Source: Chloroflexota bacterium
GTDB taxonomy: Bacteria > Chloroflexota > Anaerolineae > UBA7937 > B3-Chlor
Direction: 5' to 3'
Assembly: GCA_030613785.1 (NCBI GenBank)
Contig: JAUWLF010000009.1
Location: forward strand, 5,624 to 69,623
Length of the DNA stretch: 64,000 nt
Part shown: positions 4,434-21,532 of the stretch, piece by piece
How the letters are laid out: every line of letters starts with the position of its first letter
Position numbering within the stretch: position 1 is the first letter of the stretch
The notes under the pieces: model-generated
The model's database searches: none
The model's input: the letters and a program-made list of their open reading frames with translations, nothing else
Told to the model about the DNA's origin: nothing
Translations under genes and position numbers: made by a program

Positions 4434-4464
4434 AAGGCCCGCCCCGAACTGCAAGGCGAGCCTT
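4434..4464 (-). promoter_or_regulatory. Leader hairpin, copy A (AAGGCUCGCC / 11-nt loop UUGCA... / GGCGGGCCUU)
   Basis: 10-bp stem with one G-U pair, followed by UUGCGUU. It lies about 50 nt downstream of promoter 4513..4541 and 142 nt upstream of the DUF3644 ATG. Confidence 0.6.
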
Positions 4465-4512
4465 GTTGACGAAGTATTGATCCAGGATGCTCCCCTTGGA
4501 CCTTACGATCAC

Positions 4513-4541
4513 ATTCTAGCACAATTGCGCTTGCCTGTCAA
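4513..4541 (-). promoter_or_regulatory. sigma70-type promoter TTGACA-17-TAGAAT (DUF3644 cassette)
   Basis: Minus strand reads TTGACAGGCAAGCGCAATTGTGCTAGAAT, with a TGC extended -10. Confidence 0.75.
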
Positions 4542-4593
4542 GATAGGCGGTACTTGGTCACCCCTCTATGACCATCCTCGCCATAACCGGTCC

Positions 4594-4743
4594 CTAGGTG
4601 TCGGTATCAAGGTTCTCCAACGGAACCCAACCGCTCTCCCCACTCTCCTTCGTCGCCCAGGCCCAGTGACTTTCCTCGAACTCCACAGTCAGCACTTCGC
4701 CCACCTCGACGGACAACTCAGTCGCGTCGTAGTCGCGCTTCAT
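4594..4743 (-). CDS. SH3-like mini-protein 2 (49 aa from the ATG; the ORF track extends it to a GTG at 4815)
   Basis: MKRDYDATELSVEVGEVLTVEFEESHWAWATKESGESGWVPLENLDTDT, an SH3-type pattern (ALYDY-like start, W-W, GWVP). Its ATG overlaps the upstream stop as TGATG. Confidence 0.55.
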   Translation of the reverse strand: MKRDYDATELSVEVGEVLTVEFEESHWAWATKESGESGWVPLENLDTDT

Positions 4744-4919
4744 CACGCAGGAATCCCCCCGGATCTCCACCCACTGTTGCCTAAGCTGCTGGTGCACCAG
4801 ATCCACCCGGGCCACTCCGTCTCCTTGTGTTCGAAACTGAGCTGCTCGCCCTCTCGCACGGTCAACGGATCGGCGTCTGCAGCTTGATGTGGTTTGGTAA
4901 CACGATGCTTGTCACCCAT
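4743..4919 (-). CDS. SH3-like mini-protein 1 (58 aa)
   Basis: MGDKHRVTKPHQAADADPLTVREGEQLSFEHKETEWPGWIWCTSSLGNSGWRSGGIPA. This is the internal ATG of ORF 4743..5036. The SH3 pattern is present but the usual GWVP..Y ending is lost. Confidence 0.5.
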   Translation of the reverse strand: MGDKHRVTKPHQAADADPLTVREGEQLSFEHKETEWPGWIWCTSSLGNSGWRSGGIPA

Positions 4920-4941
4920 CGAGTTGTCTTCCCGTGCAGCC

Positions 4942-5943
4942 TCAGTCCTCGGCAAACCCTTCGAGTTTGGGCACGTCCTCGGCCTCGCCAACACCGCCTG
5001 GTTCAGGCAACTCACCCGCGCTTGGCCTGGACGCACTGATCTGAAGACTCGTCAACCCACTGCTCACCTTGCTCAGCAGGACACTCAGCTCGTTGCGGGA
5101 ATTGGTCAGCATCGTGATCGCCCTGGAGAACCTGCCTTCGAGTTCTTCTTGCGCCGCCTGGATGCTCTCTTCCGCGCTGCGCAGGTACGCGTCCAATCTC
5201 TGCACGTCAAAGCTCTGCGAGGTCTCGAGTACTGTTTGAAACACGAGCAACAGATAGGGGACAAACATTCTGTAGCTGACGAGTGCCACGTTCAACCGAA
5301 ACACGTCTACGTAGATGCCAGCGCTAAGATCGTACACCCCGTCGGGGACCACCGCGACGCCGAAGTTCACCGTGACGTTGGGATCGATGTACTTCCTCAC
5401 CTCTTTGGCCTTGTCGAGCACAGCCTTCTCGATCTGAGCCTTGATCCTTTGTTGGTCCTGAGGGTCGTCGGCGGCGGCGAACTGCTCCAAGAGATGCGTC
5501 GCCGGCCACTTGGAGTCGATGGGCAGCACCAGGTTGTTGGGCAGGCGCAGGCCGAACTCCACGGCCTTGTCCCCTACCCTGAAGTTGCGCACCTGCCACT
5601 CGATGGGCAATTGGGCAAACACCGCCTCGAGGATATTCTCCCCCGCCGCGCCTTTGGTCTGCGTCCCGGCAATGACCATCTCCAGCCGCCGTATGGACTC
5701 GGCCGTCTGGCGCTCCAGGTCCTGGCGCGCTCTCGTGTACGCCTGCAACTGGGTCAAGTCCCGCTGGATGTTGGTCACCGCCTGGCTGACCGGCTCCAGT
5801 TGCGACAGCTTCTCTGAGATGACTGCGGTCTCCACGTCTCGTCGAGAGCTGCGGAGTTGCAGGAATTGCAGGGCCAGCAGCATTAGCACTGCCAGCAGAA
5901 GCACGACCACCAGAACGACCAACACCAGCAACAAAGGATCCAT
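4942..5943 (-). CDS. rmuC: RmuC-family protein (N-terminal TM helix, coiled coil, PD-(D/E)xK-like nuclease core)
   Basis: The hydrophobic N-terminus LLLVLVVLVVVLLLAVLMLLAL is followed by GAAGENILEAVFAQLP and EFGLRLPNNLVLPIDSKWP, which match RmuC core motifs. AGGAGG lies 6 nt before the ATG at 5943. Confidence 0.75.
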   Translation of the reverse strand: MDPLLLVLVVLVVVLLLAVLMLLALQFLQLRSSRRDVETAVISEKLSQLEPVSQAVTNIQRDLTQLQAYTRARQDLERQTAESIRRLEMVIAGTQTKGAAGENILEAVFAQLPIEWQVRNFRVGDKAVEFGLRLPNNLVLPIDSKWPATHLLEQFAAADDPQDQQRIKAQIEKAVLDKAKEVRKYIDPNVTVNFGVAVVPDGVYDLSAGIYVDVFRLNVALVSYRMFVPYLLLVFQTVLETSQSFDVQRLDAYLRSAEESIQAAQEELEGRFSRAITMLTNSRNELSVLLSKVSSGLTSLQISASRPSAGELPEPGGVGEAEDVPKLEGFAED

Positions 5944-5987
5944 CACATGCCTCCTGTTATGCGCCCAACTCCGTCTGCATGTCTACC

Positions 5988-6959
5988 TCAGTCCCGCACC
6001 GAGAACTCCACCCACAGCGGATAGTGGTCCGAGATGCGCCACGAGAGCTGCTGCCTGGTCAGGTTCAGCGACCTCAGCGCCGCCGTGGTGAAGTCGAAGC
6101 TACCCGCCTGCACGTACTCCAGGGACAGGGCCGGAACCTGGTTGTCCCCCGTGAACCAGGCGATCTGGTCGTAGAACTTGGGCCGGGCGGGATGGCCGAA
6201 GATCGTGCGAGGCACCTCGTTCACATCGTCAGGGACGTACAGCCCAGTAGAGCTGAAAGCCTCATACAGCTCGCTCTCCTGGCGGTCGATGTTGAAGTCA
6301 CCCAGGGCGATGAGGTTCTGATCATAGGCGTTGACATCCTTGGCCCAGTCGGCCATCCATTCGGCGATGGCCTTCAGCTCTGGGATGCGTCCCTCGGCCT
6401 CATCCCCCCACTTGACGTGCAGCGTGACCAGGATGAAGGTTCGCTTGCCCGAGAGGAAGCTCACCGCGTATGGCGTGCGAGCGAACTGTTCGTGCAGGGC
6501 GTCCGGCCCGATTCGGTCCAACTGCTCCTTCGGCACCACCAGCTCGCAGGCCAGCCCCGAGAGCCGCACTTTCCGCGTGTCGAACACGAAGGCCATGCGC
6601 TCGCTGTTGCCTGGAGCGCCCCTGGTGACGTCCGTCAGGCTGAAGGCCCAGTGTGGACCCAGGACCTTGAGCATGTGTCGCAGCGACCTCAGATTGGCCT
6701 TCACCTCCTGGAGGGCAATGACGTCGAAGCGGGAGACGATCTCGGCGATACAGCGCACGGCGTGAAGGTCGCGCTTGGGAGTGTCGTCGGGACCGGCCCT
6801 CCACTTCTTGGTCATGTTCCCAAAGGCCCGGATGTTCCACGTGCCAATAAGCACGTTCTGGTCGAGAATCTTGGGCGGGATGGCCTCATCCAGGGCCTCT
6901 CGTAGCTCAGCGAGTTCGGCCTCGATGTCTGGCGGCGGGCGATCGGTGATCTCAGCCAT
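5988..6959 (-). CDS. Endonuclease/exonuclease/phosphatase (EEP, DNase I-like) family protein
   Basis: 323 aa with LIGTWNIRAFG, VIALQEV, LGDFNIDR and SDHYPLWVEF. Strong SD GAAAGGAGG. Confidence 0.8.
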   Translation of the reverse strand: MAEITDRPPPDIEAELAELREALDEAIPPKILDQNVLIGTWNIRAFGNMTKKWRAGPDDTPKRDLHAVRCIAEIVSRFDVIALQEVKANLRSLRHMLKVLGPHWAFSLTDVTRGAPGNSERMAFVFDTRKVRLSGLACELVVPKEQLDRIGPDALHEQFARTPYAVSFLSGKRTFILVTLHVKWGDEAEGRIPELKAIAEWMADWAKDVNAYDQNLIALGDFNIDRQESELYEAFSSTGLYVPDDVNEVPRTIFGHPARPKFYDQIAWFTGDNQVPALSLEYVQAGSFDFTTAALRSLNLTRQQLSWRISDHYPLWVEFSVRD

Positions 6960-7049
6960 GCAACCTCCTTTCTCGATCCGCCGGCATTGGTCGTGCTCTT
7001 GCCAACAGACCGTTTATGACGGGATACTCGCTCTGGAGTCAAGACAAAA

Positions 7050-7079
7050 CAGGGCTCGCCCTGTGCAAGGCGAGCCTTG
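7050..7079 (-). promoter_or_regulatory. Leader hairpin, copy B (terminator-like: 11-bp stem, loop UUGCACAG, then UUUUGUCUUG)
   Basis: The RNA reads CAAGGCUCGCC-UUGCACAG-GGCGAGCCCUG-UUUUGUC. It lies between promoter 7128..7156 and the EEP ATG at 6959. Confidence 0.65.
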
Positions 7080-7127
7080 TCGACGAAGAAATGATGAGTG
7101 AGTGCTCCCCCTGCACCCTGCGTACTT

Positions 7128-7156
7128 ACTATAGCAGTCGTGAGGTGGATTGTCAA
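7128..7156 (-). promoter_or_regulatory. sigma70-type promoter TTGACA-17-TATAGT (EEP/RmuC/SH3 operon)
   Basis: Minus strand reads TTGACAATCCACCTCACGACTGCTATAGT. Confidence 0.8.
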
Positions 7157-7386
7157 TAGAGAACCGCCGCTGATCTGAGGTGTTGCCGCCCTTGGCCCAA
7201 GATCTCTCCCTCGGGCCCCATACTGTCGGCGCGCTGCACTTGCCTCACTCTGGTGCTCTCCTTCGACAGAAGCCTTGTCAGGTTGTGCCAGTGAAAACGG
7301 CTGGGCCGATCATGCTCCACGTTTTCGCAGTGCAGCAGGTCAAAGCCATGTAGGAAGTCTGCTCTCGATTTTTCCCTGCATCGCAT
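7153..7386 (-). CDS. Hypothetical 77-aa basic protein, possibly coupled to the DUF4013 gene
   Basis: Its ATG overlaps the DUF4013 stop as TGATG, the same junction used by other coupled pairs here. No family was recognised, and its 3' end runs into promoter B. Confidence 0.25.
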   Translation of the reverse strand: MRCREKSRADFLHGFDLLHCENVEHDRPSRFHWHNLTRLLSKESTRVRQVQRADSMGPEGEILGQGRQHLRSAAVLY

Positions 7387-8051
7387 CAGGCGACTGCCAG
7401 CGATTCGCGTTGCACCTGGCCCAGCAGATGCGCCATTACCAGATAGTACCAGAACATGGTGAAGAGCAGGCCGACGAAGCAGGCTATCACGCCGAAGTAG
7501 GCGACGTAGACAGCCACCACAGTGAGGGCGAGGGCCACGATGTAGTTGGCTATGTTGTCCCTGATGAAGCCGAAGATCTCACCGACCTGGAAGGCGGACC
7601 TGAAGACACCGGTCATCGCATACCTGATGAGGGCCGCCGGCGCAAAGAACAGGACCGCAATCGTATAGATCAAGTAGATACAGTTCGAACAGGCGCGGAG
7701 CATTCGCGCCATGTTCATCAGGGCCTCGTTATCGCTGACCCCACCCACGCCCAGCACGTACACACCCATCAATCCCAAGTTCAGACATAGCAGCGGCATC
7801 ATCGGAATCTGGTAGATGAAACCGATGACGAAGAAGATCAGCCCCTTCATGAACTTGCCACCGAAGTCCTCCCACTCGGGCAGGGGGATGTCCATCCCGT
7901 CGGCGGTCCTCTTGAGCGCCTCCAGCATGTATCCCAAGACCGTGAAGTTGACGATGGGGATGAAGAACAGGATGCCGCCGATGACGATCTTCGTGATCCA
8001 GCCCTCATCCTCGAACACGTAAGTGAACGATCTGCCAATATTGAGTGTCAT
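7386..8051 (-). CDS. DUF4013-family membrane protein
   Basis: 221 aa. The N-terminus FTYVFEDEGWITKIVIGGILFFIPIVNFTVLGYMLEALK fits my recollection of DUF4013. It has several TM helices. Confidence 0.6.
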   Translation of the reverse strand: MTLNIGRSFTYVFEDEGWITKIVIGGILFFIPIVNFTVLGYMLEALKRTADGMDIPLPEWEDFGGKFMKGLIFFVIGFIYQIPMMPLLCLNLGLMGVYVLGVGGVSDNEALMNMARMLRACSNCIYLIYTIAVLFFAPAALIRYAMTGVFRSAFQVGEIFGFIRDNIANYIVALALTVVAVYVAYFGVIACFVGLLFTMFWYYLVMAHLLGQVQRESLAVA

Positions 8052-8181
8052 TTCGATCTTACCTCCTCTGGGCTGAATTCGTCATTTCCTCAGGTGGAAT
8101 TCGATCAGTCGTTTCATAGTTGACATCCTTTCAGCACCTTTGAGAATGCTATCTCACTTGAGGCGCAGGCGGCAGGGCGGC

Positions 8182-8721
8182 TTAGCCGACGCTTCGCTTT
8201 CTCCGCGCAGCAACCCTAGATTGCACGACAAGAACGACTATCAAGAGAGCAATTGTGACCACAATAGCAGGCCAGGTGCGATGGTAGCCCGCGTCGAGTG
8301 GCGGGCGGGGTTGCGGCAACCACAAATCGGGAAGCTGATGGGCACCCATAACAAAGAAACTGTCAACCAGAAAGTAGATCACGTTTGTGGCCGCAAATGC
8401 CCAGGGCAACAGCGCCCTATTCGTAGTTCGTGCAGTTCCAGCGACGAATATGCTTGCACTGGCTACAACAAACACTACACCGGGCAGGATGGAACCAGGC
8501 GGCACTTCAAAGAAATCATTCACAGTCCGTGCCCAAGTTCCCAGAGGGGGTCGTTCCGGCGGACCAATGCAATCCCACGGCACCAACCAAGCCTCCGTCA
8601 TAACTGCGATCATCACGAACAGGAAACACCAGGTGCCGACCAGTAAGAGTGTACCGCTGCCAAAGACCACCGCCTTCTTCAGGTTCCATCCGACTCTTCT
8701 GTCAACAGTTTGTGTGTCCAT
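8182..8721 (-). CDS. Hypothetical membrane protein (about 4 TM)
   Basis: 179 aa with hydrophobic segments. SD GAGGAG precedes the ATG. Confidence 0.5.
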   Translation of the reverse strand: MDTQTVDRRVGWNLKKAVVFGSGTLLLVGTWCFLFVMIAVMTEAWLVPWDCIGPPERPPLGTWARTVNDFFEVPPGSILPGVVFVVASASIFVAGTARTTNRALLPWAFAATNVIYFLVDSFFVMGAHQLPDLWLPQPRPPLDAGYHRTWPAIVVTIALLIVVLVVQSRVAARRKRSVG

Positions 8722-8920
8722 TGCTCCTCGTTACCACTGCACGAAACGGCGGCCGACTGCTCGACATCCGAAGCCCGCATCTGTAGCACATCGCCAATCT
8801 TTCCCCAGAGTCTCTTCGTCACCGTCAGGCCAAGCGCTCTCTCCTCTCACCCTGCCGCAGAGGATCTGGGCATCAGCCGCCAACGGCGCGCTAGATAAGG
8901 TGTCACGGACTTGCTTGAAT

Positions 8921-9640
8921 TCATTTCCCAGGCCAGCGCCAGTAGGCCGGTTCCTCCCCTGGGGGGTAGACATCCACAATCTGCCAGTGGCGCACAGGAT
9001 ATCCTTGCATCTCTCCCCAGTAGCAGCCGCCAGCCACCAGAAGGTCGAATACGTATTGGCCCGGTTCATCACCTCCGGAGACTTCTACCCAGAGCCGGGC
9101 AAAACCGGCGTCTCGGCTATCGGTGATGACGCGAGGCTCGCAGCACGTGCCCCACCACTCGATTCTTAGCACCCGACGGGTCAGCTCCGCCCGCAGCTCC
9201 TCCAGTTCTGTGGTTACAGACTGGCGGCGCACTTCATACTCCGGCCCGAGGCGCTCGTTCGCGGGCCACAGTGTCAGGGCTTCCTCGCGAGCCCCTGACG
9301 AGACGAACTCTAGATACGACGATACTTTCGCTTGGGGTGCTTCCCCGATGAGCCTCTCGACCAGACGGTTGGCGGGTCCCAGCATGGCAGCACTGCTAGT
9401 CACGGGAAGGAACCCGAACGCTACAAGTACTATGCCGACGAGCCCGACGTGGACCACTAAGCATAGGACGATGCCCCTCCCACTTCCCAGCCATCTGGAC
9501 AGCAACAACAAGGACAATGCTCCAATGGGCAAGGCATAAGCAGGCGAGAGGCCAGTGGGCAACATCGGCGAAAGCAGTACAGCCACTAGCAGCGAAGCTA
9601 GCAGAAAGGCAAGATACACCAGTAGAATTCGAATCCTCAT
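8921..9640 (-). CDS. Hypothetical protein, 3 N-terminal TM helices plus a soluble C-terminal domain
   Basis: 239 aa. SD GAGGTGAGGG. No family recognised. Confidence 0.5.
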   Translation of the reverse strand: MRIRILLVYLAFLLASLLVAVLLSPMLPTGLSPAYALPIGALSLLLLSRWLGSGRGIVLCLVVHVGLVGIVLVAFGFLPVTSSAAMLGPANRLVERLIGEAPQAKVSSYLEFVSSGAREEALTLWPANERLGPEYEVRRQSVTTELEELRAELTRRVLRIEWWGTCCEPRVITDSRDAGFARLWVEVSGGDEPGQYVFDLLVAGGCYWGEMQGYPVRHWQIVDVYPPGEEPAYWRWPGK

Positions 9641-9795
9641 CCCTCACCTCGCCACCGCTTTCACGCAGTCGCCGACGCAGAGATGGCACTCTGGAGCTTT
9701 CAGCACAAGCGAAGCGGCCTGCAGCGTACCGAGGGCCATGCCCCGAAGTGGCGCCTGCACCGCGCTATGTGCGGTTGCCATCGTCGGTCTCTCCC

Positions 9796-10848
9796 TCAAC
9801 CCGCTCTGTGCTCTTGGGCGCCAGCCGCGGGGCCTTGGCGTTCAATCCAATAATACATCACCGTGGCCAGAGCTACCGCTATCGTATACTGGGCGCCAGC
9901 CAGGAGATGTGGGAGCCACCAGCCAATCCAGTATCGGCTTGGCGTGCCCCGGCACGCGAGGAGTCCGATGGCCGCGCCCATGACCACAGCGATGATGGGC
10001 GGCAGTATCAGCCCCCAAACCCGCTGGCGCGCGGAGCGGGAACGCAACACCCAGATGGCTGGGACGATGAGCAAGAGCAGAACCATGACACTGGCCAGCG
10101 CGATCACGGGTGCCTGGTGGGCCGTACACACCCAGATGCCGTAGACCGGTCGCCCGTCTGCCACCATTAACACAACCAGCCCGTCCACCATGACGTATTG
10201 GAAGGCACCGACCATCAGCCCTGCCAAGGTACCGCTGCGCCAAGCGAGCGGCAAGCCTATCGCTACCGCCGACAGGACCACGCCCGTCCCCCTCAGTTCG
10301 TACCATAGTCGAGCCAAGACAGCTACCCAGTCATATGGGCCTGGGGCGGCCACGCTGGTGGTGATGACCTGAGCCACGCCAAAAAGGATGGCCAGGCCAA
10401 GCAACACCCATCCCGACCGCGGAACGTGAATGCCGTGCCGCCGGTAAACCCGGTACGTGATTGGAGCAGCAATCGCAGCAAGGAAAGCAAACTCCAGCAC
10501 GGGGGGTGCGTTGTGCCAGAACGCGCTCGGAGCGTCTAGAACTCGGAAGAGCATATTGGCCAGAGGTACCCACCACCAGGCACTAAGGAGAGCTAGTAGA
10601 ATACCGAAGGCGGGATAACTCCAGATGGGGAGGCGGCGCTGGGGAACAAGCCCTGCGATGACCAGGAGCAGACATACGCCGATCAAGCCACGTACGGCGA
10701 GAATGTCAGCTGTGGCGACGCCCAGAGCCGACGAGAGGAGACCGCTGCTGGCCGCGAGGGCAAACAGTCCAGGGAGAATAGCCAGTACAACTTTCGCCCA
10801 GGCCGTGGGAGAGAACGAACGCTCTTGCATCTCCTGACTCCTCTGCAA
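9796..10848 (-). CDS. Polytopic integral membrane protein (about 10 TM)
   Basis: 350 aa, almost entirely hydrophobic. SD GAGGAGTCAGGAG. Confidence 0.55.
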   Translation of the reverse strand: MQRSQEMQERSFSPTAWAKVVLAILPGLFALAASSGLLSSALGVATADILAVRGLIGVCLLLVIAGLVPQRRLPIWSYPAFGILLALLSAWWWVPLANMLFRVLDAPSAFWHNAPPVLEFAFLAAIAAPITYRVYRRHGIHVPRSGWVLLGLAILFGVAQVITTSVAAPGPYDWVAVLARLWYELRGTGVVLSAVAIGLPLAWRSGTLAGLMVGAFQYVMVDGLVVLMVADGRPVYGIWVCTAHQAPVIALASVMVLLLLIVPAIWVLRSRSARQRVWGLILPPIIAVVMGAAIGLLACRGTPSRYWIGWWLPHLLAGAQYTIAVALATVMYYWIERQGPAAGAQEHRAG

Positions 10849-10988
10849 TATCCGTTCTTAGCTCCGATGAGGCGTCTGCACACCAAGGCGCCACATGCGA
10901 AGTCTTCCCCACTGAAGGCGAGGCTTCTCGCCGATCGCTCGCAAGGCCTCCTGTCAGCTTCGGGTGGTGCGACGTGCTGTCAAAGAGA

Positions 10989-11019
10989 AAGGCCCGCGCG
11001 GCGATGCAAGGCGAGCCTC
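10989..11019 (-). promoter_or_regulatory. Leader hairpin, copy C
   Basis: GAGGCUCGCC...CGCGGGCCUU gives 9 pairs including wobbles. The loop starts UUGCA and UUCUCUUUG follows. It lies 140 nt upstream of the ATG at 10848. Confidence 0.55.
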
Positions 11020-11058
11020 ATCGAAGAAGCGTGTGCTCCCCCTGCACCCTGCCCACAT

Positions 11059-11087
11059 ACTATAGCACAAGTGCGGCAATCCGACAA
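11059..11087 (-). promoter_or_regulatory. sigma70-type promoter TTGTCG-17-TATAGT
   Basis: Minus strand reads TTGTCGGATTGCCGCACTTGTGCTATAGT. Confidence 0.65.
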
Positions 11088-11130
11088 TACGGAATCGGGC
11101 TCTTCTGTCACCCCCACCGACTTCGCCGCT

Positions 11131-12072
11131 CTAGAACGCGGGTGGCTCCTGAAACAGCAGCCGGACGTCCAGCGGGAGGCCCTTCCTCTCGTCGCGCACC
11201 AGCGACAGCGCCTCATCTGGGCACTGCTGCACACATACCCCGCAACCCATACACGTCTCCCAGTGCACGACGGCCGTCTCGTCTACCTCGATGGCTCCGA
11301 AGGGACAGGCATCCTCACAGGTCCCACAGGCTACGCAAAGTGTCTCGTCCACCTCCGCGACGTAACCGGAGGACGCGATGCCAGGAACGCCATACTTGAC
11401 CATGCCTTCAATGCCCGCACAGCAGCAGCCACAGCAGTTGCAGATTGCGTAGAAGCGGTCGATGCAGGCATCCTTGAAATAGGCAGCATGCACGTGCCCG
11501 CGCTCATGCTCTGCCCGAAGGAGTTCGAGGGCCTCCGCTTGGGTGAGTCGGCGACTGGTCTGGGGATGGTGCTCCAAAATGAAATCCGTGAAAGGTTGGC
11601 CGATGGCCATGCATACCTGGCTGGGCTGGCAGACACTATCCCGCAAGTCCCGGCAAGCACACTCGAATGCCACCACATCCGGCGGGCTATTGAGCACCAA
11701 TTCGCGAGCCATGGCATAAGGGATGATCTGCTCCAGGTCTCTCAAGGGGATTTCTTGCTGAATGGTGATGATGGCCTCCGCTTGATCCTGCGTCAACACC
11801 TTGCTGTGGTGGTGGTCGGCCAACCACTGCTTTCCCCGGGGACCCAGGCGGGGGATGATGTGATTGATGAATAGATCAACATATTCCTTGGTCCAGCGCC
11901 CATAGATGTAGCCATGCACACCGCTCAGATTGAGGAATCGCCGCAAGCCGGCCTCTCTCATCATCCTCCACGTCGAGGGGCGCAAGGGCCTCCACCGCTC
12001 ACCATAAAGCCACACAATCACTACCGTTGCCACCAGCGCGGCCGCCGTGATGAGTATGATGCTGCCTAGCAT
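11131..12072 (-). CDS. Membrane-anchored Fe-S protein (CNCCGCCC cysteine cluster plus a 2x[4Fe-4S] ferredoxin domain)
   Basis: The start was moved to the ATG at 12072 (MLGSIILITAAALVATVV, SD GAAGGAGGG), because the ORF-track start lies inside leader hairpin D. Motifs are CVACGTCEDACP and CMGCGVCVQQCP. It is a paralog of 56139..57224. Confidence 0.7.
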   Translation of the reverse strand: MLGSIILITAAALVATVVIVWLYGERWRPLRPSTWRMMREAGLRRFLNLSGVHGYIYGRWTKEYVDLFINHIIPRLGPRGKQWLADHHHSKVLTQDQAEAIITIQQEIPLRDLEQIIPYAMARELVLNSPPDVVAFECACRDLRDSVCQPSQVCMAIGQPFTDFILEHHPQTSRRLTQAEALELLRAEHERGHVHAAYFKDACIDRFYAICNCCGCCCAGIEGMVKYGVPGIASSGYVAEVDETLCVACGTCEDACPFGAIEVDETAVVHWETCMGCGVCVQQCPDEALSLVRDERKGLPLDVRLLFQEPPAF

Positions 12073-12126
12073 GCTGTCTGCCCTCCTTCTTTCAGCTCCG
12101 TACAGTGCTCCGAACTGCCAAGCAAG

Positions 12127-12157
12127 AAGCCTCGACCTGCCATGCAAGGCGAGGCTT
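12127..12157 (-). promoter_or_regulatory. Leader hairpin, copy D (compensated stem AAGCCUCG / CGAGGCUU)
   Basis: The stem position that is G-C in copies A, B and G is C-G here, changed on both arms. The loop contains UUGCA. Confidence 0.6.
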
Positions 12158-12210
12158 GTCGACCAAGAAGAGACGAAGCAGCGGCTGCTCCCTCTCCGCC
12201 CTCCCTGCTC

Positions 12211-14417: not shown

Positions 14418-14474
14418 TCAACACGTCTTCATGTCTCAACCGTAGGATCACCCTAGCCCCGGACGCCTAGCCTC

Positions 14475-14921
14475 TCACAGATGCACTACCTCAACATCCG
14501 GCCATGATTTCTGCAAGTACTCAGCCACAAGCCTCCGGTGGCAGTGGTCGGGAGTAGGCTCGCTGCACAGCAGGCAACAACTCTTCTCCGCAAAGAAATC
14601 CCTGTGGAGCGTCTCCAGAACCTTCCGCTCCTCCAGCAAGTCGTGGAACTCCTTCACGTACAGCTCCCAGTCCATCTCTGATTCCTGATATGCCTTCCTG
14701 ATCTCGGGGGTTGGAGCCAGGGACTCGAAATGGTAGTATTCGATGCGCAGCAGGCGGCGGAGGAAGTACTCCAGATCCTGCTTCTTGCTGAACCCAGCAA
14801 GCTGTGAAGTGTTGCGCAAACGCACATCCAGTACGCGCTCAATGCCGTGACTCTCGAGCAAGTCGAAGAACTCCTCAGCGGACTTCTTGGTGTAGCCTAT
14901 CGTGTAGATCTTCATGGCCAT
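14475..14921 (-). CDS. DUF488-family protein (copy 2)
   Basis: MKIYTIGYT, VLDVR and CSEPTPDHCHRRLVAEYL are DUF488 hallmarks. An alternative ATG at 14915 overlaps the upstream stop as ATGA. Confidence 0.8.
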   Translation of the reverse strand: MAMKIYTIGYTKKSAEEFFDLLESHGIERVLDVRLRNTSQLAGFSKKQDLEYFLRRLLRIEYYHFESLAPTPEIRKAYQESEMDWELYVKEFHDLLEERKVLETLHRDFFAEKSCCLLCSEPTPDHCHRRLVAEYLQKSWPDVEVVHL

Positions 14922-15433
14922 TCATCCCCAAAACCCAACTGCTGGGCGTCCCAGGCCAGGCTTCTTTGTGCCGGCTCTGTCCACGTCTCGCCGGCCTTAT
15001 GTCGGATGTGCACCACTTCCACGTCTCTGTCCAGCAGGGTCTGAGAGATGAGCAAGTGACGATGGCATTGGCTGGGGTCCTCCTCGGCACACATGATCGC
15101 TGTCCACTTCTCGGTCGCAAGTTGGATAAGCCCGTCGATGCCTTTCTTGTACCAGTCCCTTTTCTCCACCTCCTCATAGAGCACTCTGTCTTCATCTTGC
15201 TCATCGTAACAGCTTGGGTCCTTCGGCCTCCCCCCCAGATGATGCCCCCCGTAGATGTACTGGATTCCGGCCTGCTCGAGTTGCTCGGCAAGTGTCTCCC
15301 TATTGAACTGGGGTGCATGCCGGCTATAGGGGGAGCTGCGCACATCCAGCACCGCGTCGATGCCATGAGATTGCAACAACTCGATCACTCGCTCCACTTC
15401 AACGTTACTGTGCCCAATGGTGTAGATAGTCAT
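14912..15433 (-). CDS. DUF488-family protein (copy 1)
   Basis: MTIYTIGHSN, VLDVRSSP and CAEEDPSQCHRHLLISQTL. Confidence 0.8.
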   Translation of the reverse strand: MTIYTIGHSNVEVERVIELLQSHGIDAVLDVRSSPYSRHAPQFNRETLAEQLEQAGIQYIYGGHHLGGRPKDPSCYDEQDEDRVLYEEVEKRDWYKKGIDGLIQLATEKWTAIMCAEEDPSQCHRHLLISQTLLDRDVEVVHIRHKAGETWTEPAQRSLAWDAQQLGFGDEWP

Positions 15434-15558
15434 TGCCCGCTCTCTACCCTACGGTGATAACCCTCTGCCGCAACGCAACCCGTTGGCGGTAACACCGCCA
15501 CTTGCACGACCGACAGCCGGAGCCTTTGTCCGGCACGCACTCAGGCCCGTACATTGCG

Positions 15559-15681
15559 TCAAAGCCGTCTGTCGGCCGCCGAGAACTCCTCCAGTCTGAT
15601 CCCTGAGGTGAATCGCTCAATCTTCTCGAGTGCGTCGAGGATATTTTGAAGGTAGTCTCTGAAGTCTCGGTCTTGCGTCAT
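15559..15681 (-). pseudogene. hepT: Truncated HepT (DUF86) toxin remnant, 40 codons
   Basis: Hand translation gives MTQDRDFRDYLQNILDALEKIERFTSGIRLEEFSAADRRL*. This is a typical DUF86 N-terminus, but the R(x)4HxY region is absent. Its ATG overlaps the mntA stop as ATGA. Confidence 0.6.
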
Positions 15682-15980
15682 ACCGGCACGAGTTCCTCAA
15701 GGATGTGAGTGCCGATGCGCGGCTTCAGTGTGCTCCTCATTACCAGGTCTATCTGGACACCGAGGAGTTCGCTGAGGTACTCCTCAAGCCGGATGAACTC
15801 GAAGAGGCTAGGTGGTTCGTGGAACTCCACAAGTACGTCTAAATCGCCACCTTCCCCTTGCTCGCCACGCACATAGGAACCGAATACACCCAAGGACTTG
15901 ACTCCGTTGCGTGTTTGCAGCTCAGGCAAGTACCTGCGAAGAGATCCTACGAACTGTGCCAGCTCCTCGTTCGTCGCCAT
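15678..15980 (-). CDS. mntA: MntA-type nucleotidyltransferase (type VII antitoxin family)
   Basis: MATNEELAQFV...LGVFGSYVRGEQGEGGDLDVLVEF, with the GSxxRG...DxD motif. The start at 15980 has SD GAGGA; an alternative ATG lies at 16034. The ORF-track start at 16145 is inside the promoter. Confidence 0.75.
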   Translation of the reverse strand: MATNEELAQFVGSLRRYLPELQTRNGVKSLGVFGSYVRGEQGEGGDLDVLVEFHEPPSLFEFIRLEEYLSELLGVQIDLVMRSTLKPRIGTHILEELVPV

Positions 15981-16116
15981 GGCCACGTCCTCGGTGGTCT
16001 TGCCGCCCTCCGACAGGTCCTTCGAATGAGCCATAGTACATCTGCCAGGGTTGTCAGCCGCTCGCAATGAAGCGAACGCTATCCGCATGGACCAGAACAG
16101 TCCGTGCCCCAATCGC

Positions 16117-16145
16117 AGTATAGCAGGAACGAAGTGTGGTGTCAA
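16117..16145 (-). promoter_or_regulatory. sigma70-type promoter TTGACA-17-TATACT
   Basis: Minus strand reads TTGACACCACACTTCGTTCCTGCTATACT. Confidence 0.75.
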
Positions 16146-16425
16146 TGGTGCGCTAGCTGGGGGAGACTTCGACTAACCGAGGCCGCGGCGAGAAATCGCA
16201 TCCCGACATGGCCCAACGGCAACGGCTCCCGGGACGACAAGGTGGCTCGAACGTCGTCAGACACAAGCCCAGCTACATGAATTGAGGACAAGCTGCCTGC
16301 GATCCTGAGATCAGAGTAGTCACCCTATTGGCGACCTATCCGGACCTTGAACTGCTGGTCCTCCCTCTCCGTGACCGCAATCCACAATCCCCTCAACTAG
16401 GGGATCTCCAGGTCACGTGCGGGCC

Positions 16426-17901
16426 CTACCGCGCAGTCAACTCCGGGAGCTGGTCCAGCCCTGCGGCCTTGGCATGCCGGGTAGCGATGGCCTCCAGCTC
16501 CCGCACCACATCGTTGGCCAGCGGCAACGCCTCGTAAGCCTCGATCAGTTCCTCGACCCGGTGATGCGCGCGGGCGTTGACGTCCAGCGCCCCCTTGCCG
16601 AGCCAGGTCTGGCGATAGTCCCGGTCGATCACCTCCGAGGGCATGTAGTCTTCAGTGCGGAAGTGACGGACGGTGTGCTTGGTGCCCAGGAAGCTGCCCT
16701 TGTGTCCCACCTCGCGCATCACATCCAGCGCCAGTGGCTCGTCCGAGTCATCCACGCCGCGCACCAGCCGCTTGGCCATGCCCACGATTTCGGCGTCGAT
16801 CACCAGCTTCTCGAGGCTGAAACAGCTCTCAAAGTTCATCATGCCTGGCCCCGACATCATGTTGATCCCTGCTAGCGCACCGAGGATGGCCCCGGACGCC
16901 GACTCCAGGCCCGCCTGGGCGTCCACAATCTTGGTGTCGCTCATACAGAGGTATGCATGGGTGGGCAGGCCGCCCGGCTTGATCATCTTGCCGATCTGAG
17001 AGTAGGTGCAGTCGAGCATCATCGTCCCCATGGCGCCCATGGGCGGTGCACCCGTGCGCATGTCGAAGGCGGACGGAGAGCCGCCCCAGACGATGGGGCT
17101 CCCTGGATGGGCCAGTTGGTGGATGGTGAGGCCACTCAGGCACTCGGCGGCGTGCTGCACGGCCGCGCCGATGATTGTGGCGGGACCGGTTGCACCCATC
17201 AGGGGCATGGAGACCAACTGAGCGGGCACCTGGGCGCGGGCGGCGTCCATCAGATTAGCGCACGTGATGTCGCTCCACATCAGGGGTGGTGATGGACAGA
17301 CGTCGAAGATGGCGCGGGGTCTCTCCGCCAGGGCTTCCGCGCTCCCCGCCACGGCCACCAAAAGTTCGTGCATAATGGCGAAGCTCTCGATGGCAAAGGT
17401 GCCGGTGACGATGGGTTTCCGGGCGTAGAGCAGCACCAGATATAGGCGGTACCAGTCGCCCATGCTCTTGGGCACGTCGCCGCAGACGATGGATGTGGCC
17501 ACGGCGTCGATCTGGGGCAGCATCTCCGCCAGCCGGACGAAGTTCTCGCCATCGGCGGTGACCGGCACACGCGCCTCGTTAGCCCCATAGTCGGCGATTT
17601 CGATGGCCGCCGAACCGGGATCGAAATGCACGTCATCGCCGCCATAGTGGACGACTGGCTCTCCATCAAGGTTGTAGAGATAGAACGAGTTGGGCGCGCT
17701 CTCCACCGCGCTTTCGGCCAAAGGCCGGGGGATCTTGGCGACGCGCGATTCCATATCCACGGTGGCACCGGCGTCGGCCAACAGCTCCAACGCCTCATCG
17801 TAGTGGATGCGCACCCCGGGGTCGACCAATAGATCGTAGGCCTCGTCGAGCGCCCGATCGACTGTCTCGCGCGATAGGAACTCCAGCTTGGGTCGTATCA
17901 T
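16426..17901 (-). CDS. MttB-superfamily methyltransferase (trimethylamine/glycine-betaine type, no in-frame UAG)
   Basis: The start was moved to MIRPKLEFLSRETVDRALDEAYDLL (SD GAAGGAGGAG) because promoter 17924..17952 lies inside the longer ORF. It gives 491 aa, a typical MttB length, and the frame is uninterrupted. Confidence 0.75.
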   Translation of the reverse strand: MIRPKLEFLSRETVDRALDEAYDLLVDPGVRIHYDEALELLADAGATVDMESRVAKIPRPLAESAVESAPNSFYLYNLDGEPVVHYGGDDVHFDPGSAAIEIADYGANEARVPVTADGENFVRLAEMLPQIDAVATSIVCGDVPKSMGDWYRLYLVLLYARKPIVTGTFAIESFAIMHELLVAVAGSAEALAERPRAIFDVCPSPPLMWSDITCANLMDAARAQVPAQLVSMPLMGATGPATIIGAAVQHAAECLSGLTIHQLAHPGSPIVWGGSPSAFDMRTGAPPMGAMGTMMLDCTYSQIGKMIKPGGLPTHAYLCMSDTKIVDAQAGLESASGAILGALAGINMMSGPGMMNFESCFSLEKLVIDAEIVGMAKRLVRGVDDSDEPLALDVMREVGHKGSFLGTKHTVRHFRTEDYMPSEVIDRDYRQTWLGKGALDVNARAHHRVEELIEAYEALPLANDVVRELEAIATRHAKAAGLDQLPELTAR

Positions 17902-17923
17902 GTCTCCTCCTTCAACGAGTCCT

Positions 17924-17952
17924 ACGATAGCACGACGCGCCTGATTTGTCAA
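17924..17952 (-). promoter_or_regulatory. sigma70-type promoter TTGACA-17-TATCGT
   Basis: Minus strand reads TTGACAAATCAGGCGCGTCGTGCTATCGT, with a very short leader of about 15-20 nt. Confidence 0.7.
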
Positions 17953-18350
17953 CGAAGCGCCCAAGAGCACCTTCAACCGGTCCACGGAATGTCGCTCTGC
18001 CCAACCGACCACAAGCGCTGCCGGAGATGCTCCGCTGTACTTCCTCGGGCGTAGACCCATTCCGCCTCAGATGACTGCGGCCGCTGGCACTTGCACCTGC
18101 AAGGCCGCAGTCAGGGAAGAGATAGGGTCGACAGGACCGAGAACTGAGCTGCCTACCTAACCGCTTGTGTTGCGTGAGACCCAATCCTATGGCTTCGTGC
18201 TTCTTGGCCGCACCGAAAACTCCAGACCCGCCATCCTGAGTAATCGCGGAACGTAGTGGAGCAGCGTATCGAAGGATGTTCCCTTCGACACAGTGTCCGA
18301 CCAGGCAGGCATCCCCTTGAGGCAACCCTGCGCACAGCCTCGAGTCAACC

Positions 18351-19634
18351 TCACCCCTCGTCCCTCTGCACCTCAAAGGCGCCGATGTCGCACGGAGTGC
18401 CGTCGGAAGTCAACTCAATTGGCCGGGCGTTCCCCCGCTGGTCGGTGGTGACGGTGCAACTGATCACGGAGACGGCGTCAATCGCCGGGCTGCCCGGGAG
18501 CAGGGTATGGGTCAGGGTATCGCCGCCGTTGTCGGCCAGGGGAGCCAATCGCGCATCGCCCGAGAGGGCAGGGCTGCAACTCCCGTCCTCGACCAGGTTG
18601 TTGGCGTTTGTCCCGAGGGTGCTGTCGTCGGCCAGCATGCAGTCATCACAGCAGTACTCCCGGCCATCGGTGTTGTCGGCGATGATGGTGTTGGTGAGGT
18701 CCAGCCACCCGCGGATGAGACCCCTCTCACCGCTGCCTTCGACGTAGACACCACCCCCGGTGCCGGCAGCATGGTTGCCGGCGACAGTGCTGTTGATCAA
18801 CTGCGCCGCCCCCTTGACGTACATTCCGCCACCGTTACCTCCTGTGGCGCTATTGCCGCTGACGGTGCTGTTGATGAGCTCCAACGTGCTCTTGCAGGCC
18901 ACAAAGATGCCGCCCCCTCTATCTCCGCAGGCGTTCCCGGTCACGGTGCTGTTGATCAGTGTTAGCCTCCCTGTGAGACTCTTGATACCCCCACCAGTAT
19001 TGCATTCCCTGAAAGCGCTGTCGGCGGTACCGGCGGCGTTGTCGCTCACCGTGCTGTTGATGAGCGTCAGTGTGCCATCACTGTGAATCCCACCGCCGGC
19101 AGTGGAGTCGTTGTCGCTGACAGTACACTGTTCTAGCGTCAGCGTACCCTCGTTCAGGATCCCGCCACCGGTTCTGGGACTTTCCGTGGGATTGCCGTAC
19201 CGAATCGTCAGACCGCCCATGGTTACTGTGGCCTCACTGGTGATGAAGAACACCCGGTCGCTCGCGCTGCCGGCCTCTGCGTGAGCCTGCACAATAGTGC
19301 CCCCGGGCGCCTGGCCCAGGATGGTGACGCTCTTCTCCACAGTGATGCCCTGCTCGGTGTGCACAGCGTCCATGACAGCGATGATCTCACCATCCGTGGT
19401 GCCGGCGTCGTCTATCGCCGCTTGAATGGTGGTGAAGTCGCAGCCGCTGGCGCACACGCTGAGGGCGGGTACCAGAGTAGGCGTAGGTTCGGCCGTGGGG
19501 CTGGGTTCAGGAGTGGCCGTGGGCGAGGCTATCGCCGTCGGCGCTGGCTGCGGCGTTGCGCACCCCGCAATCACCAATACCACTCCCAGGATGACCAAGA
19601 CGTTTCTCAACACTCTCCCCAAGGAGCCAAACAT
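18351..19634 (-). CDS. Secreted lipoprotein with parallel beta-helix repeats and a choice-of-anchor-Q-like C-terminus
   Basis: Lipobox VLVIAGC. A Pro/Thr linker is followed by repeated [11 protein letters not shown] units. The C-terminus reads [22 protein letters not shown]...DQRGNARP...CDIGAFE. Confidence 0.7.
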
Positions 19635-19679
19635 GGCCTTCTCCTTCCCGGCTGCGGCGGCTGTGTCAACAAAGCGGTC

Positions 19680-21218
19680 CTATCTCTCGTAGACCCACTC
19701 CTCGAATAGTGGGGTCAGGTCGCACTGGCAGTGACGCTCCGCAAGCTCCTTGAACGCCTCTCCCGTGCCGATGCCCCACTGGTAGGTCTGGTAGTAGTCC
19801 CGCAGGAATTCGTCGAATGTGGCCTGACCCATTTCCTCGGCCAGAGTCTCTACGAAGAGGGGCCCACGGCCGTAGACAATCGCACCGTACTGCCCGTCCT
19901 CGTACGCTCCCACGGGCAGACCGATGGGGGTCTCGGCCATGTCAACACGGTCCCAGCGACCGACCCACGAGTCACGGTATCCCTGCGCAGCACCCGCTCC
20001 GTCGGTATCCAGATAGTACAGCTTCACCACGTACTGCACCACGGCCTCATCCAGCCAGGGCTCGTCCACCTGATCGTTCCCCACGACGTTGTAGAACCAC
20101 TGATGGGCAACCTCGTGGGCTACAGCCGACTCGAGGATGATCGGCGATGGCAGCCCCAGGATCTCCGCGTTCGGGTCGAACAGATCCAGGGATATACCCG
20201 TCAGGCCCGGATACTCGATGCCCAGCGCCCGCATCGGCGTGCTCACTACGTCGAATTCGGTGTACGGGTACACGCCAAACCGGTCGTTGTAGCTCTCCAG
20301 AGCGTCCACCGCAAACTGCAAAGCCAGCTCGGCTCCGTCTCTCCGCTCGGCAAAGGTGTGGCTGTTGACCGTCGTCTCCCCCACCGTTTCGCTGACCGTC
20401 ACGTATTGGTCACTGGCAGCGAGATAGAAATCGCGCGCGGGGCCAGCGGCGAAGGTCAGCGTCTGCTTCCCGTTCTCTAGTTCGCGCCCGACCTCAACCC
20501 CCGAGGCGACTACAGTGAGCTCGGCAGGCGCAGTCACGCGCAACAGATAGAAGCTGGCGTCGAAGTGAGTCACATCTCCGGTGGGAGGCGGAACCTCCAC
20601 GTTCCATCCCTCTTCGTCGTAGACCGGGATCACCGGATAGAACTCGTCCAGCACTAACACTTCATCGAAGTAACCAAACAATCCGTAGTTCCCGCCCATC
20701 TCCGTGGGCACTTCCACGGTGAAGTTCATCTGGATGGTGATCTGCTCGCCAGGATCCAATGGATCCGGCAAGGGAACCCGCACAGCACTGTTCTCCAGTT
20801 CATAGACCGGCTCCACATCCTCCCCATCCACCTTCACCCCAGACACCGAGGCCGCTCCTCCGGCCAGGTTCGGAAACAAGCGGAAGTAGACTTCGTCAAG
20901 AGCTGCATCCTCTTGATTGGTGTAGCGGGCCTCTTCCCGACCTGACAGGGTGAGGAAATCGTCGGCGATCTCAAGGTCGATGTGGTAGACGGTCGCCCCC
21001 GGCAAGTCATCTAGTACCGCTTGCTCCCCCTGGATCAGTCCTTGACGGAACACAGCGCGGTTTTCCCAGTCTATGTCAGACCCAGTAGATGCGCTGCGCG
21101 TGGGGAGTGGGGTCCAGGATGAAGAAGGAGTGGTCTCCTCTGGCGCTATTGGCGTTGACGCGCTGCACGCCGCCAACGCCAGTGTGGCCAAGACTAGAAC
21201 AGCTGACAACCTCTTCAT
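19680..21218 (-). CDS. M1-family zinc metallopeptidase lipoprotein
   Basis: HEVAHQWFYNVVGND...WLDEA (HExxH-18-E). Signal plus lipobox LALAAC. The ATG at 21218 is preferred for its SD spacing. Confidence 0.75.
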   Translation of the reverse strand: MKRLSAVLVLATLALAACSASTPIAPEETTPSSSWTPLPTRSASTGSDIDWENRAVFRQGLIQGEQAVLDDLPGATVYHIDLEIADDFLTLSGREEARYTNQEDAALDEVYFRLFPNLAGGAASVSGVKVDGEDVEPVYELENSAVRVPLPDPLDPGEQITIQMNFTVEVPTEMGGNYGLFGYFDEVLVLDEFYPVIPVYDEEGWNVEVPPPTGDVTHFDASFYLLRVTAPAELTVVASGVEVGRELENGKQTLTFAAGPARDFYLAASDQYVTVSETVGETTVNSHTFAERRDGAELALQFAVDALESYNDRFGVYPYTEFDVVSTPMRALGIEYPGLTGISLDLFDPNAEILGLPSPIILESAVAHEVAHQWFYNVVGNDQVDEPWLDEAVVQYVVKLYYLDTDGAGAAQGYRDSWVGRWDRVDMAETPIGLPVGAYEDGQYGAIVYGRGPLFVETLAEEMGQATFDEFLRDYYQTYQWGIGTGEAFKELAERHCQCDLTPLFEEWVYER

Positions 21219-21501
21219 GATCATCTCCTGGTATTGCCTGGTGATGCAAGGGAGCCTGTCTCATTGGGAACGGCGCCCTTTTCCTGCTTGAGAAGCCTTG
21301 TCTGCCCGCGTCGGAAGTGGAGCAGTGATGCCGCGCCCCATTCCGTACACCAGCGACGGCCGCATGAGGTTCACGCATCCAGGACGCTCGGCGACCGCCC
21401 GCGGTCAGACCCCACTTTCCATTAGTCTGACAGCCCGGATACGTCAGCGAGCCTGCGCTCAAGGGCTCGACTCCCTCCTCGTGGCTACCCGTAGAAACAC
21501 G

Positions 21502-21532
21502 AAGACTCGCCCCCACATGCGAGGCGAGCCTT
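21502..21532 (-). promoter_or_regulatory. Leader hairpin, copy G
   Basis: AAGGCUCGCC-UCGCAUGUGGG-GGCGAGUCUU (10 bp, one G-U), then CGUGUUUCUAC. It lies 278 nt upstream of the M1 peptidase start. Confidence 0.5.

Follow-up and report, generated by a model that had tools for sequence, protein, structure and literature searches.

Why would functionally unrelated genes on one bacterial contig share the same 5′ leader? This question is raised by a 64,000-nt stretch of a Chloroflexota bacterium (contig JAUWLF010000009.1, positions 5,624 to 69,623), here called the window, in which a preliminary description had noted six copies of a promoter followed by a leader with a terminal hairpin. Our comparisons indicate that these copies belong to a conserved, lineage-restricted promoter-leader RNA motif, which is real and apparently undescribed. 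We propose that the module probably throttles or switches the genes behind it through premature termination.

All six copies (A, B, C, D, E and G) lie on the minus strand where they had been reported, and they were recovered by direct reading, by a 15-mer search and by a covariance model. Each has the same layout from 5′ to 3′, as first described: a CUUCGUCGAC-like pyrimidine-rich stretch, the arm AAGGCUCGCC, a loop, the arm GGCGRGCCUU and a U-rich tail. The loop begins with UUGCA, or with UCGCA in copy G. When the 15-mer AAGGCTCGCCTTGCA was searched with up to two mismatches, exactly these six sites were matched in the window; with up to three mismatches there were eight matches against 2.2 expected, a number reached in none of 100 shuffles. 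The covariance model, R1, describes the linker and the hairpin P2 (see below) and was run with filters off; the six window copies are part of its training set. It scored them at 40.2-63.5 bits (A 63.5, B 59.9, C 59.9, D 60.4, E 44.9 and G 40.2), and the next-best match in the 64 kb reached 12.6 bits. All six lie within 17 kb and none was found by R1 in the remaining 47 kb. Pairwise identity among them is only 71-78%. Their P2 hairpins are the strongest terminator-like structures of the window, where such sites otherwise occur at chance level. Since two other consensus promoters of the window (at 16145 and 17952) carry no leader, the leader is not generic promoter-proximal sequence.

The earlier claim that four copies follow perfectly spaced promoters holds for A, B, C and D, where a consensus scan found extended -10 promoters of the TTGACA-17-TGnTAnAnT type and where P2 begins 39-56 nt after the -10 box. 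The spacer of the copy D promoter is homologous to that of copy B. Copy E retains a promoter remnant (TTGCCC / GATGCC) at exactly the 50-nt spacing upstream of P2 that is typical of the family. No recognisable promoter was seen for copy G, either on inspection upstream or in the consensus scan; this copy sits about 70 nt past the stop of an upstream 113-aa open reading frame (ORF; 21603-21944). These consensus promoters support the view that the element is a transcribed 5′ leader before unrelated genes. The genes named earlier were also confirmed by Pfam, except that of copy C, which matches nothing in Pfam or in PADLOC and whose membrane character follows from a homologue in the metagenome locus L077. 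In the copy C leader the 3′ arm of the hairpin P1 and some of the linker are missing, which makes it about 10 nt shorter.

The module measures about 95 nt, counted from the -10 box through the last base of P2. Its order is a transcription start, predicted to lie a few bases past the extended -10 box, followed by a short 5′ tail, hairpin P1, a linker, hairpin P2 and a U-rich tail. The distance from the end of the -10 box to P2 is near-constant at 49-50 nt in most subfamilies. P1 is variable, and its pairing register changes between subfamilies: it reads GCAGGGG-GAGC-CCCCUGC in the subfamily that we call family 2, GCGGGGC-GAGC-GCCCUGC in locus L081, GCAGGGU-GAGC-ACCCUGC in locus L033, GGGUGC-AGGGGGA-GCACCC in the B type and GGUCC.AGGG-GAGCA-UCCU.GGAUC in the A type. 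The GAGC loop is closed by a G-C, U-A, C-G or G-U pair, and covariation in P1 is, judging from these alignments, genuine. Whatever the register, P1 keeps a conserved G-rich strand, S1, with the consensus UGCRRGGNGAGC (e.g. UGCAGGGGGAGC), which forms the loop in the B type and an arm in family 2. The linker (CAUCUCUUCUUCGUCGAC-like, about 18 nt) is conserved, pyrimidine-rich and unpaired in nearly all minimum-free-energy folds, and it is the best-conserved unpaired stretch of the module.

P2 is a G+C-rich stem of 10-12 bp, AAGGCUCGCC / GGCGRGCCUU, that is nearly invariant and is followed by a short, interrupted U tract. About 97-98% of its cells are paired (96.9% on 42 distinct sequences). The preliminary description had read covariation in this stem as selection on structure. 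One double compensatory change does exist, in copy D (G-C to C-G), with wobble transitions making up the rest, but on the 42 distinct sequences covariation in P2 was not above shuffles, in a set biased to invariance since some of its sequences were retrieved with a pattern that fixes the stem. Selection on structure therefore lacks statistical support for P2, which is conserved in sequence. The search pattern itself, through ascertainment, accounts for some of this invariance; in copies found by R1 alone the P2 arms are equally conserved and variation is confined to the loop. Loop length is about 7-12 nt, not the 8-15 nt first given, and the UUGCA start seen in the window is not invariant across the family, which also has UUGUA, UUGUG, UUGUC and UUGCG. 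Within the loop, UUGC on the 5′ side is conserved, whereas the 3′ half varies freely. Between subfamilies, promoter spacers, P1 and the 3′ halves of the loops have diverged, whereas both P2 arms, the loop start and the linker are invariant. The hairpin is more stable in the sense than in the antisense orientation in 35 of 36 cases (averages of -20.6 versus -15.3 kcal/mol), which favours a role at the level of the transcript. Conservation ends at the last base of P2: ten A-type copies are 100% identical in the P2 5′ arm and 27% identical, a random level, over the next 30 nt.

Outside the window, species-representative genomes, a set that does not include the genome of the window itself, were scanned with a pattern; most of what was found were single hairpins due to chance, and each genome gave only one or two strict-pattern matches. 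The full architecture, including a TTGACA-17-TGnTAnAAT promoter, was found in five loci of Anaerolineae/Chloroflexi metagenome-assembled genomes (MAGs; loci L014, L026, L033, L039 and L045). A pattern scan of metagenomes added about 30 loci, and rescanning the loci with R1 recovered copies that the pattern had missed, giving about 45 copies outside the window in total. These copies, from Anaerolineae/Chloroflexota genomes and metagenomes, always follow such a promoter directly, and for about 35 out of 38 a long ORF on the same strand starts 16-450 nt downstream. Two copies lie within 0.5-7.4 kb of each other in nine other loci. By these comparisons the element is a family with local clustering, not a high-copy dispersed repeat, and it is restricted to a clade of Anaerolineae. 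The organism of the window is itself a Chloroflexota of the Anaerolineae type: named homologues of one of its housekeeping enzymes, 74-75% identical, carry the labels "Anaerolineae bacterium" and "Chloroflexota bacterium". The closest DNA is locus L077 (SDBS01019254.1), which is 98% identical to window positions 5439-11913 (6.5 kb). Upstream of homologues of the copy B gene (an endonuclease/exonuclease/phosphatase, or EEP, nuclease) in distant lineages (Ardenticatenaceae and others, 70-73% identity) the leader was not found, except for one decayed copy in L086 that scores 20 bits. A phage origin was rejected, since scans of viral contigs gave no A-type leader and only two partial chance hairpins of 79% G+C.

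The leader had not been placed in any RNA family, and our searches agree. Scanning the whole window with Rfam 15 at the gathering threshold gave no match on any copy and only one match elsewhere, a SAM riboswitch at 62140-62258. E-value scans of window positions 4000-22000 and of six other leader-bearing loci likewise placed no copy in a family. The sole sub-threshold likeness of a leader was to RF02278, a Betaproteobacteria toxic small RNA (sRNA), at 22.4 bits against a gathering threshold of 50. We found no described Anaerolineae or Chloroflexi leader of this kind in the literature.

What, then, might the leader do? The sequence of S1 complements the P2 5′ arm (S3) together with the first loop bases UUGC (GCUCGCCUUGCA). 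In a 25-sequence alignment this pairing holds in 87% of cells, versus 34-53% when the partner is slid by one to three columns, and all one-sided changes retain pairing (A-U/G-U, G-C/G-U). Against dinucleotide shuffles the S1:S3 duplex has z values of -3 to -5 in the B type, family 2, L033, L081, L062 and L079; it is weaker in the A type (z -1 to -2). Such complementarity would explain why the UUGC half of the loop is conserved while the other half is free, and why the sequence of S1 is kept despite its differing use in P1. An attenuator had been suggested earlier, and this is a reasonable reading. Our own preference, which we hold tentatively, is for a portable promoter with an attenuator leader. 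In this scheme P2, lying about 80 nt from the start of the transcript, would be a leaky intrinsic terminator that restricts the RNA reaching the gene, and P1 would sequester S1. If P1 were opened, for example by a factor on its 3′ arm or on the linker, freed S1 could pair with the 5′ arm of P2 and block formation of the terminator. P1 and S1 would thus form an anti-antiterminator/antiterminator pair, and because P1 strength differs by copy, each copy would have its own set-point, which a factor might shift. In a terminator consensus scan copies B and G pass, as do shorter inner stems of A and C. The S1:S3 fold is predicted to be preferred in copy C, which has no P1 3′ arm (ddG -5.0), and in L033:4473, where this arm is weak; both look like naturally "open" variants.

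Several observations weigh against such a mechanism. Many copies have only two to five interrupted U residues after P2, and some A-type copies have just UU. S1:S3 usually contains one G.G mismatch column (U.G in L033, C-G in L081), it shows no double compensatory change, S3 being invariant, and copies D, E and G have little or no S1:S3 signal. In most copies the form with P1 and P2 is predicted to be 8-17 kcal/mol more stable than the S1:S3 form, which suggests that switching would depend on a strong trans factor or on kinetic control. Finally, the invariance of both P2 arms exceeds the needs of a plain terminator and hints at sequence-specific recognition by something else. Three other devices were considered and set aside. 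A leader-peptide attenuator was rejected: no start codon is conserved across subfamilies, and linker entropy by codon position (0.85/0.99/1.04) has no periodicity. Sequestration of the gene's own Shine-Dalgarno sequence by the linker was predicted in only 2 of 14 full 5′ UTR folds. Mimicry of the tRNA-Cys anticodon loop by UUGCA, judged by eye, was dropped because loop length varies.

The same architecture can be read in other ways that do not exclude the attenuator scheme or one another. It would suit a classical, Hfq-type sRNA, and the module could be a small family of trans-acting sRNA genes of about 80 nt, each with its own promoter, P1 as stabiliser, the C/U-rich linker as seed and P2 as terminator, with read-through feeding the next gene. 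The linker, conserved and unpaired, resembles an anti-Shine-Dalgarno sequence, and by inspection its CUUCUUC could pair with GAAGGAG-type ribosome-binding sites; the exact stop of conservation at the end of P2 and the weak likeness to the toxic sRNA would also fit. We nevertheless consider sRNA genes improbable, given that nearly all copies lie directly upstream of a co-oriented gene with no other obvious promoter, that the U tails are in many cases too weak for the RNA to be released efficiently, and that copy number is low, with the copies embedded in particular islands. Moreover, no target could be defined, and consistent pairing of the linker with the ribosome-binding site of the gene behind it was not predicted (the 2 of 14 folds above). 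The weak U tracts would be less troublesome if P2 were not itself a terminator and P2 plus the linker were recognised by an RNA-binding protein, an endoribonuclease or RNA polymerase (as in put-like antitermination), so that stability, translation or downstream termination is controlled. Two hairpins at fixed spacing right behind a promoter, and P2 arms, loop start and linker that stay invariant, beyond what a terminator needs, amid diverged surroundings, are what such a binding site might look like. However, in the loci examined the copies are not associated with any candidate protein, the P1 loops do not look like the consensus of ANTAR, RAT or PyrR-type sites, and S3, as a partner of both S1 and S4, is under a double constraint that could by itself account for the invariance. 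We therefore regard a dedicated binding site as doubtful.

The module might also act on DNA. It would then form the fixed end of exchangeable cassettes, used for recombination or insertion or as a homology anchor, and genes would be swapped behind it in defence hotspots while the promoter travels along. The fall in A-type identity from 100% in P2 to 27% from the first base beyond it, at least seven different genes behind the same leader, a conserved EEP-RmuC-SH3 flank ahead of differing cargo, the local clustering of copies, and relatives that differ by a block running from the module E -35 region to 54 nt beyond module C P2 would all suit such a role. On the other hand, no integrase or transposase was found among the approximately 40 larger window ORFs scanned against Pfam, and inspection revealed no attC-like R′/R″ core, terminal inverted repeats or target duplications. 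Upstream boundaries are ragged, some copies carrying a fragment of the SH3 gene, which looks like ordinary recombination. Non-essential positions have diverged while S1, linker and P2 are invariant, as expected of purifying selection and not of recent spread, and G-U pairs make the hairpin specific to the transcribed strand. A DNA-level role is thus the explanation in which we place the least belief, and we think it very unlikely.

Among known systems, the module resembles intrinsic-terminator attenuators and terminator/antiterminator leaders, which serve as expression platforms in many bacterial 5′ UTRs. Like them it has a promoter-proximal G+C-rich hairpin between start and gene, with a U-rich tail that is short and interrupted in many copies, and an upstream strand, which P1 would sequester, that could pair with the 5′ arm of the putative terminator. 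It differs from them in that no sensor (aptamer, leader peptide or known protein site) is recognisable, the putative terminator is conserved in sequence and does not covary, the same leader serves unrelated genes, and the terminator form is strongly favoured in most copies. Putative mobile promoters have been defined by at least 80% identity over at least 50 nt upstream of non-homologous genes (Matus-Garcia, Nijveen and van Passel 2012; PMC3575422). Here too, similar promoter regions stand before non-homologous genes, are shared across genomes and have no Rfam match. A-type copies from different genomes reach this identity, whereas the window copies compared with one another fall below the cut-off. 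Unlike putative mobile promoters, our module is conserved mainly in the transcribed leader with its hairpins, the -35/-10 spacer being free, and its copies are locally clustered in accessory/defence islands of one bacterial class. The likeness proposed earlier to the Chloroflexi-1 motif (RF01698; Weinberg et al. 2010, PMC2864571), an orphan hairpin motif reported beside unrelated genes in Chloroflexi, is conceptual only. No copy gave a cmscan match to it even at E<=10, and Chloroflexi-1 comes from Chloroflexus aggregans, not from Anaerolineae.

A promoter-carrying miniature inverted-repeat transposable element (MITE), another suggestion of the preliminary description, is unlikely. Correia elements, ERIC and BIME/REP are also intergenic repeats able to supply promoters, hairpins and terminator or processing sites. 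In contrast to these, the module has no terminal inverted repeats or target duplications, is present in low copy per genome, keeps a fixed orientation, clusters locally and is not linked to a RAYT-type transposase. MITE, Correia and REP elements were rejected: inverted repeats occur only as the internal hairpins, the unit is bounded by the -35 region on one side and the end of P2 on the other, and the flanks are unrelated. Integron arrays (attI/Pc with attC) are alike in that unrelated genes in the same orientation form local arrays separated by a conserved, structured site, and in that variable cargo stands behind a constant site bearing a promoter. Here, however, the hairpin is only about 30 nt long and each unit has its own promoter. 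An integron site was rejected because no GTTRRRY/RYYYAAC cores flank the hairpin and no recombinase was found among the larger window ORFs noted above.

The genes behind copies of the family are often defence genes, as identified with PADLOC and Pfam. They include PDC-S19 behind window copy A (PADLOC E 5e-89), Old in L073 (6e-104), a dGTPase in L014 (2e-46), a QatA/PDC-S20-like KAP NTPase in L048 and L063 (4e-22), LmuB-like SMC ATPases in L054, L067 and L075 (down to 9e-48) and the type IV restriction enzyme Mrr (PDC-S02) in L050 (1e-35). Cas3 (type I-E-like, Cas3e) is encoded at 953-2494 on the plus strand of L056 (1e-120), with a family-2 leader about 300 nt upstream. Further cases are a Type III methylase-like N-terminus at L033:4473 (2e-35), PDC-S11 at L033:1902 (2e-13) and an Old homologue at L082:4079 whose N-terminus is near-identical to that of the L073 Old protein, with no PADLOC E-value. 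Other copies precede genes with no defence role: the EEP nuclease operon, a membrane protein, a ferredoxin-domain protein, SDR enzymes, M1 and S9 peptidases, acetoacetate decarboxylase and LysM proteins. With the L082:4079 homologue counted, 8 of 10 A-type copies lie ahead of a known or candidate defence gene; in the other two cases the next gene encodes a LAGLIDADG protein or a 646-aa protein for which the only match, to MkoB, is weak. A-type copies are 82-90% identical over 90-139 nt ahead of PDC-S19, Old, dGTPase, KAP, LmuB-like and other genes. This leader typically stands downstream of a conserved EEP-RmuC-SH3 operon, and the next gene varies by genome. This combination of a constant flank and differing cargo is typical of a variable defence slot. 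The window itself contains an accessory/defence island at 786-16145, with a Type III methylase, PDC-S19, a DuOB protein, two DUF488 proteins and a nucleotidyltransferase.

These associations invite a bolder proposal, to which we assign little likelihood. A single device could keep PDC-S19, Old, dGTPase, KAP/QatA-like, LmuB-like, Mrr and Cas3 genes near-silent by premature termination and release them together on a common cue, such as infection-altered termination or a dedicated RNA-binding factor; it might also serve as a plug-in site that gives new cargo a promoter and control. P1, the S1:S3 complementarity, the restriction to an Anaerolineae clade and the association with defence and accessory genes are all new relative to the preliminary description. 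Apart from a few protein regulators, little has been learned about the expression and coordination of defence islands, and RNA regulation in Chloroflexota is almost unexplored. The module is a concrete candidate for control of defence genes at the RNA level. As a marker of variable defence slots, the leader could help to mine new systems among unknown genes that stand behind it. It may also offer a compact natural promoter-attenuator part for a phylum lacking genetic tools, and it adds a well-defined case to the poorly understood reuse of promoters.

Units of promoter, leader and gene come and go as blocks, as seen at window positions 10935-13556, a stretch absent from the close relatives L076, L069 and L085. 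The missing block starts at the -35 region of module E and consists of module E with its SDR gene, module D with its ferredoxin gene, and module C with 54 nt; the left edge of copy E (13556) is the synteny breakpoint. This is a clean block replacement. At this site the relatives (L076 6487-7095, L069, L085) instead carry a small ABM-like gene and a longer version of gene C, extended by a transmembrane segment. A small hairpin, GGCGAG-AAGC-CUCGCC, lies at 10905-10935 on the minus strand, about 55 nt past copy C P2 and exactly at the L076/L069/L085 breakpoint; the 5′ arm of copy D P2 recurs in the 3′ half of this hairpin (AAGCCUCGCCUU). Coordinates of the copies, their promoters and the genes behind them are collected in Table 1.

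Table 1. Leader copies of the window, their promoters and the genes that follow them
Feature	Position	Strand	Basis
Copy A promoter, TTGACA-17-TG-TAGAAT	4513-4541	-	consensus promoter scan
Copy A hairpin P1, GGUCCAAGGGGAGCAUCCUGGAUC	4479-4502	-	RNA fold
Copy A G-rich strand S1, CAAGGGGAGC, inside P1	4489-4498	-	S1:S3 duplex calculation
Copy A linker AAUACUUCGUCAAC and P2 (AAGGCUCGCC-UUGCAGUUCG-GGGCGGGCCUU), then UUGCGUU	4434-4478	-	R1
Gene behind copy A: DUF3644 and restriction-endonuclease-like domain	3297-4292	-	Pfam
Copy B promoter, TTGACA-17-TG-TATAGT	7128-7156	-	consensus promoter scan
Copy B P1, GGGUGC-AGGGGGA-GCACUC	7100-7118	-	RNA fold
Copy B S1, UGCAGGGGGAGC	7104-7115	-	duplex z = -3.4
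Copy B linker ACUCAUCAUUUCUUCGUCGAC, P2 (7051-7078) and tail UGUUUUGUCUUG	7040-7099	-	R1; flagged terminator-like
Gene behind copy B: EEP-family protein	5988-6959	-	Pfam
Downstream of the EEP gene: RmuC, then frameshifted SH3 gene	4942-5946; 4594-5036	-	Pfam, ORFs
Copy C promoter, TTGTCG-17-TG-TATAGT	11059-11087	-	consensus promoter scan
Copy C leader: S1 11035-11046, P2 10989-11019	10979-11053	-	fold, R1
Gene behind copy C: polytopic membrane protein	9796-10848	-	L077 homologue strongly hydrophobic
Copy D promoter, TTGATA-17-CATAGT	12211-12239	-	consensus promoter scan
Copy D leader: P1-like hairpin (~12170-12197), linker, P2 12127-12157	12117-12200	-	fold, R1
Gene behind copy D: membrane-anchored 4Fe-4S ferredoxin-domain protein	11131-12072	-	Pfam
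Copy E, decayed full module: P2 13458-13487 with one bulged base	13447-13556	-	R1
Gene behind copy E: SDR-type NAD-dependent epimerase/dehydratase	12360-13340	-	Pfam
Copy G: linker-like stretch and P2 (21502-21532, loop UCGCA)	21492-21556	-	R1
Gene behind copy G: M1-family peptidase, ~280 nt downstream	19680-21224	-	Pfam

Some features of the surroundings of the copies were also recorded. The SH3 gene after RmuC is split into overlapping minus-strand ORFs (4743-5036 and 4594-4815), through a frameshift or a sequencing error, and the 3′ end of SH3 (..ESGxSGWVPLE..) accompanies A-type leaders in L048, L054, L073 and L082. Homologues of the EEP protein (P0008-P0038) are 68-72% identical to it, come from MAGs labelled Ardenticatenaceae, WOR-3, Krumholzibacteriaceae and Bipolaricaulia, and often have restriction-modification or transposase genes as neighbours, an arrangement suggestive of a gene that moves horizontally. 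At 13647-16145 (minus strand) the window has a cluster of the conflict-system type, comprising a DuOB domain protein, two DUF488 proteins (one matching PDC-M45C, 6e-60) and a nucleotidyltransferase; the latter has its own consensus promoter (16145-16117), which is without a leader. Six family-2 loci (L049, L050, L052, L057, L064 and L072) have extra intergenic repeats about 60-250 nt upstream of the leader, made up of GCGAAGGGGCGAAAGGG-type purine-rich units and an optional insert of about 45 nt containing CATTCTGAGCGCAGCGAAGAATCTC. In family 2 about 45 nt are conserved after P2, and several copies then have a fragment resembling the C-terminus of an acetoacetate-decarboxylase gene.

Three RNA matches lie apart from the leaders. 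The SAM riboswitch at 62140-62258 (RF00162, plus strand, 73.8 bits) is located upstream of a gene for a pyridoxal-phosphate-dependent enzyme of Cys/Met metabolism (PF01053, 62387-63592, plus strand), homologues of which are called cystathionine gamma-synthase by some sources. On the leader-bearing metagenome contig L079 there is a sub-threshold match to the hammerhead HH9 at 2054-2133 on the minus strand (24.6 bits, gathering 52, E 0.02). A sub-threshold PYLIS_3 match at 16845-16944 on the minus strand of the window (34.4 bits, gathering 38, E 6e-4) lies in the ORF 16426-18060, an uninterrupted 544-aa methyltransferase of the MttB family, and it is probably a coding similarity of a non-Pyl MttB homologue.

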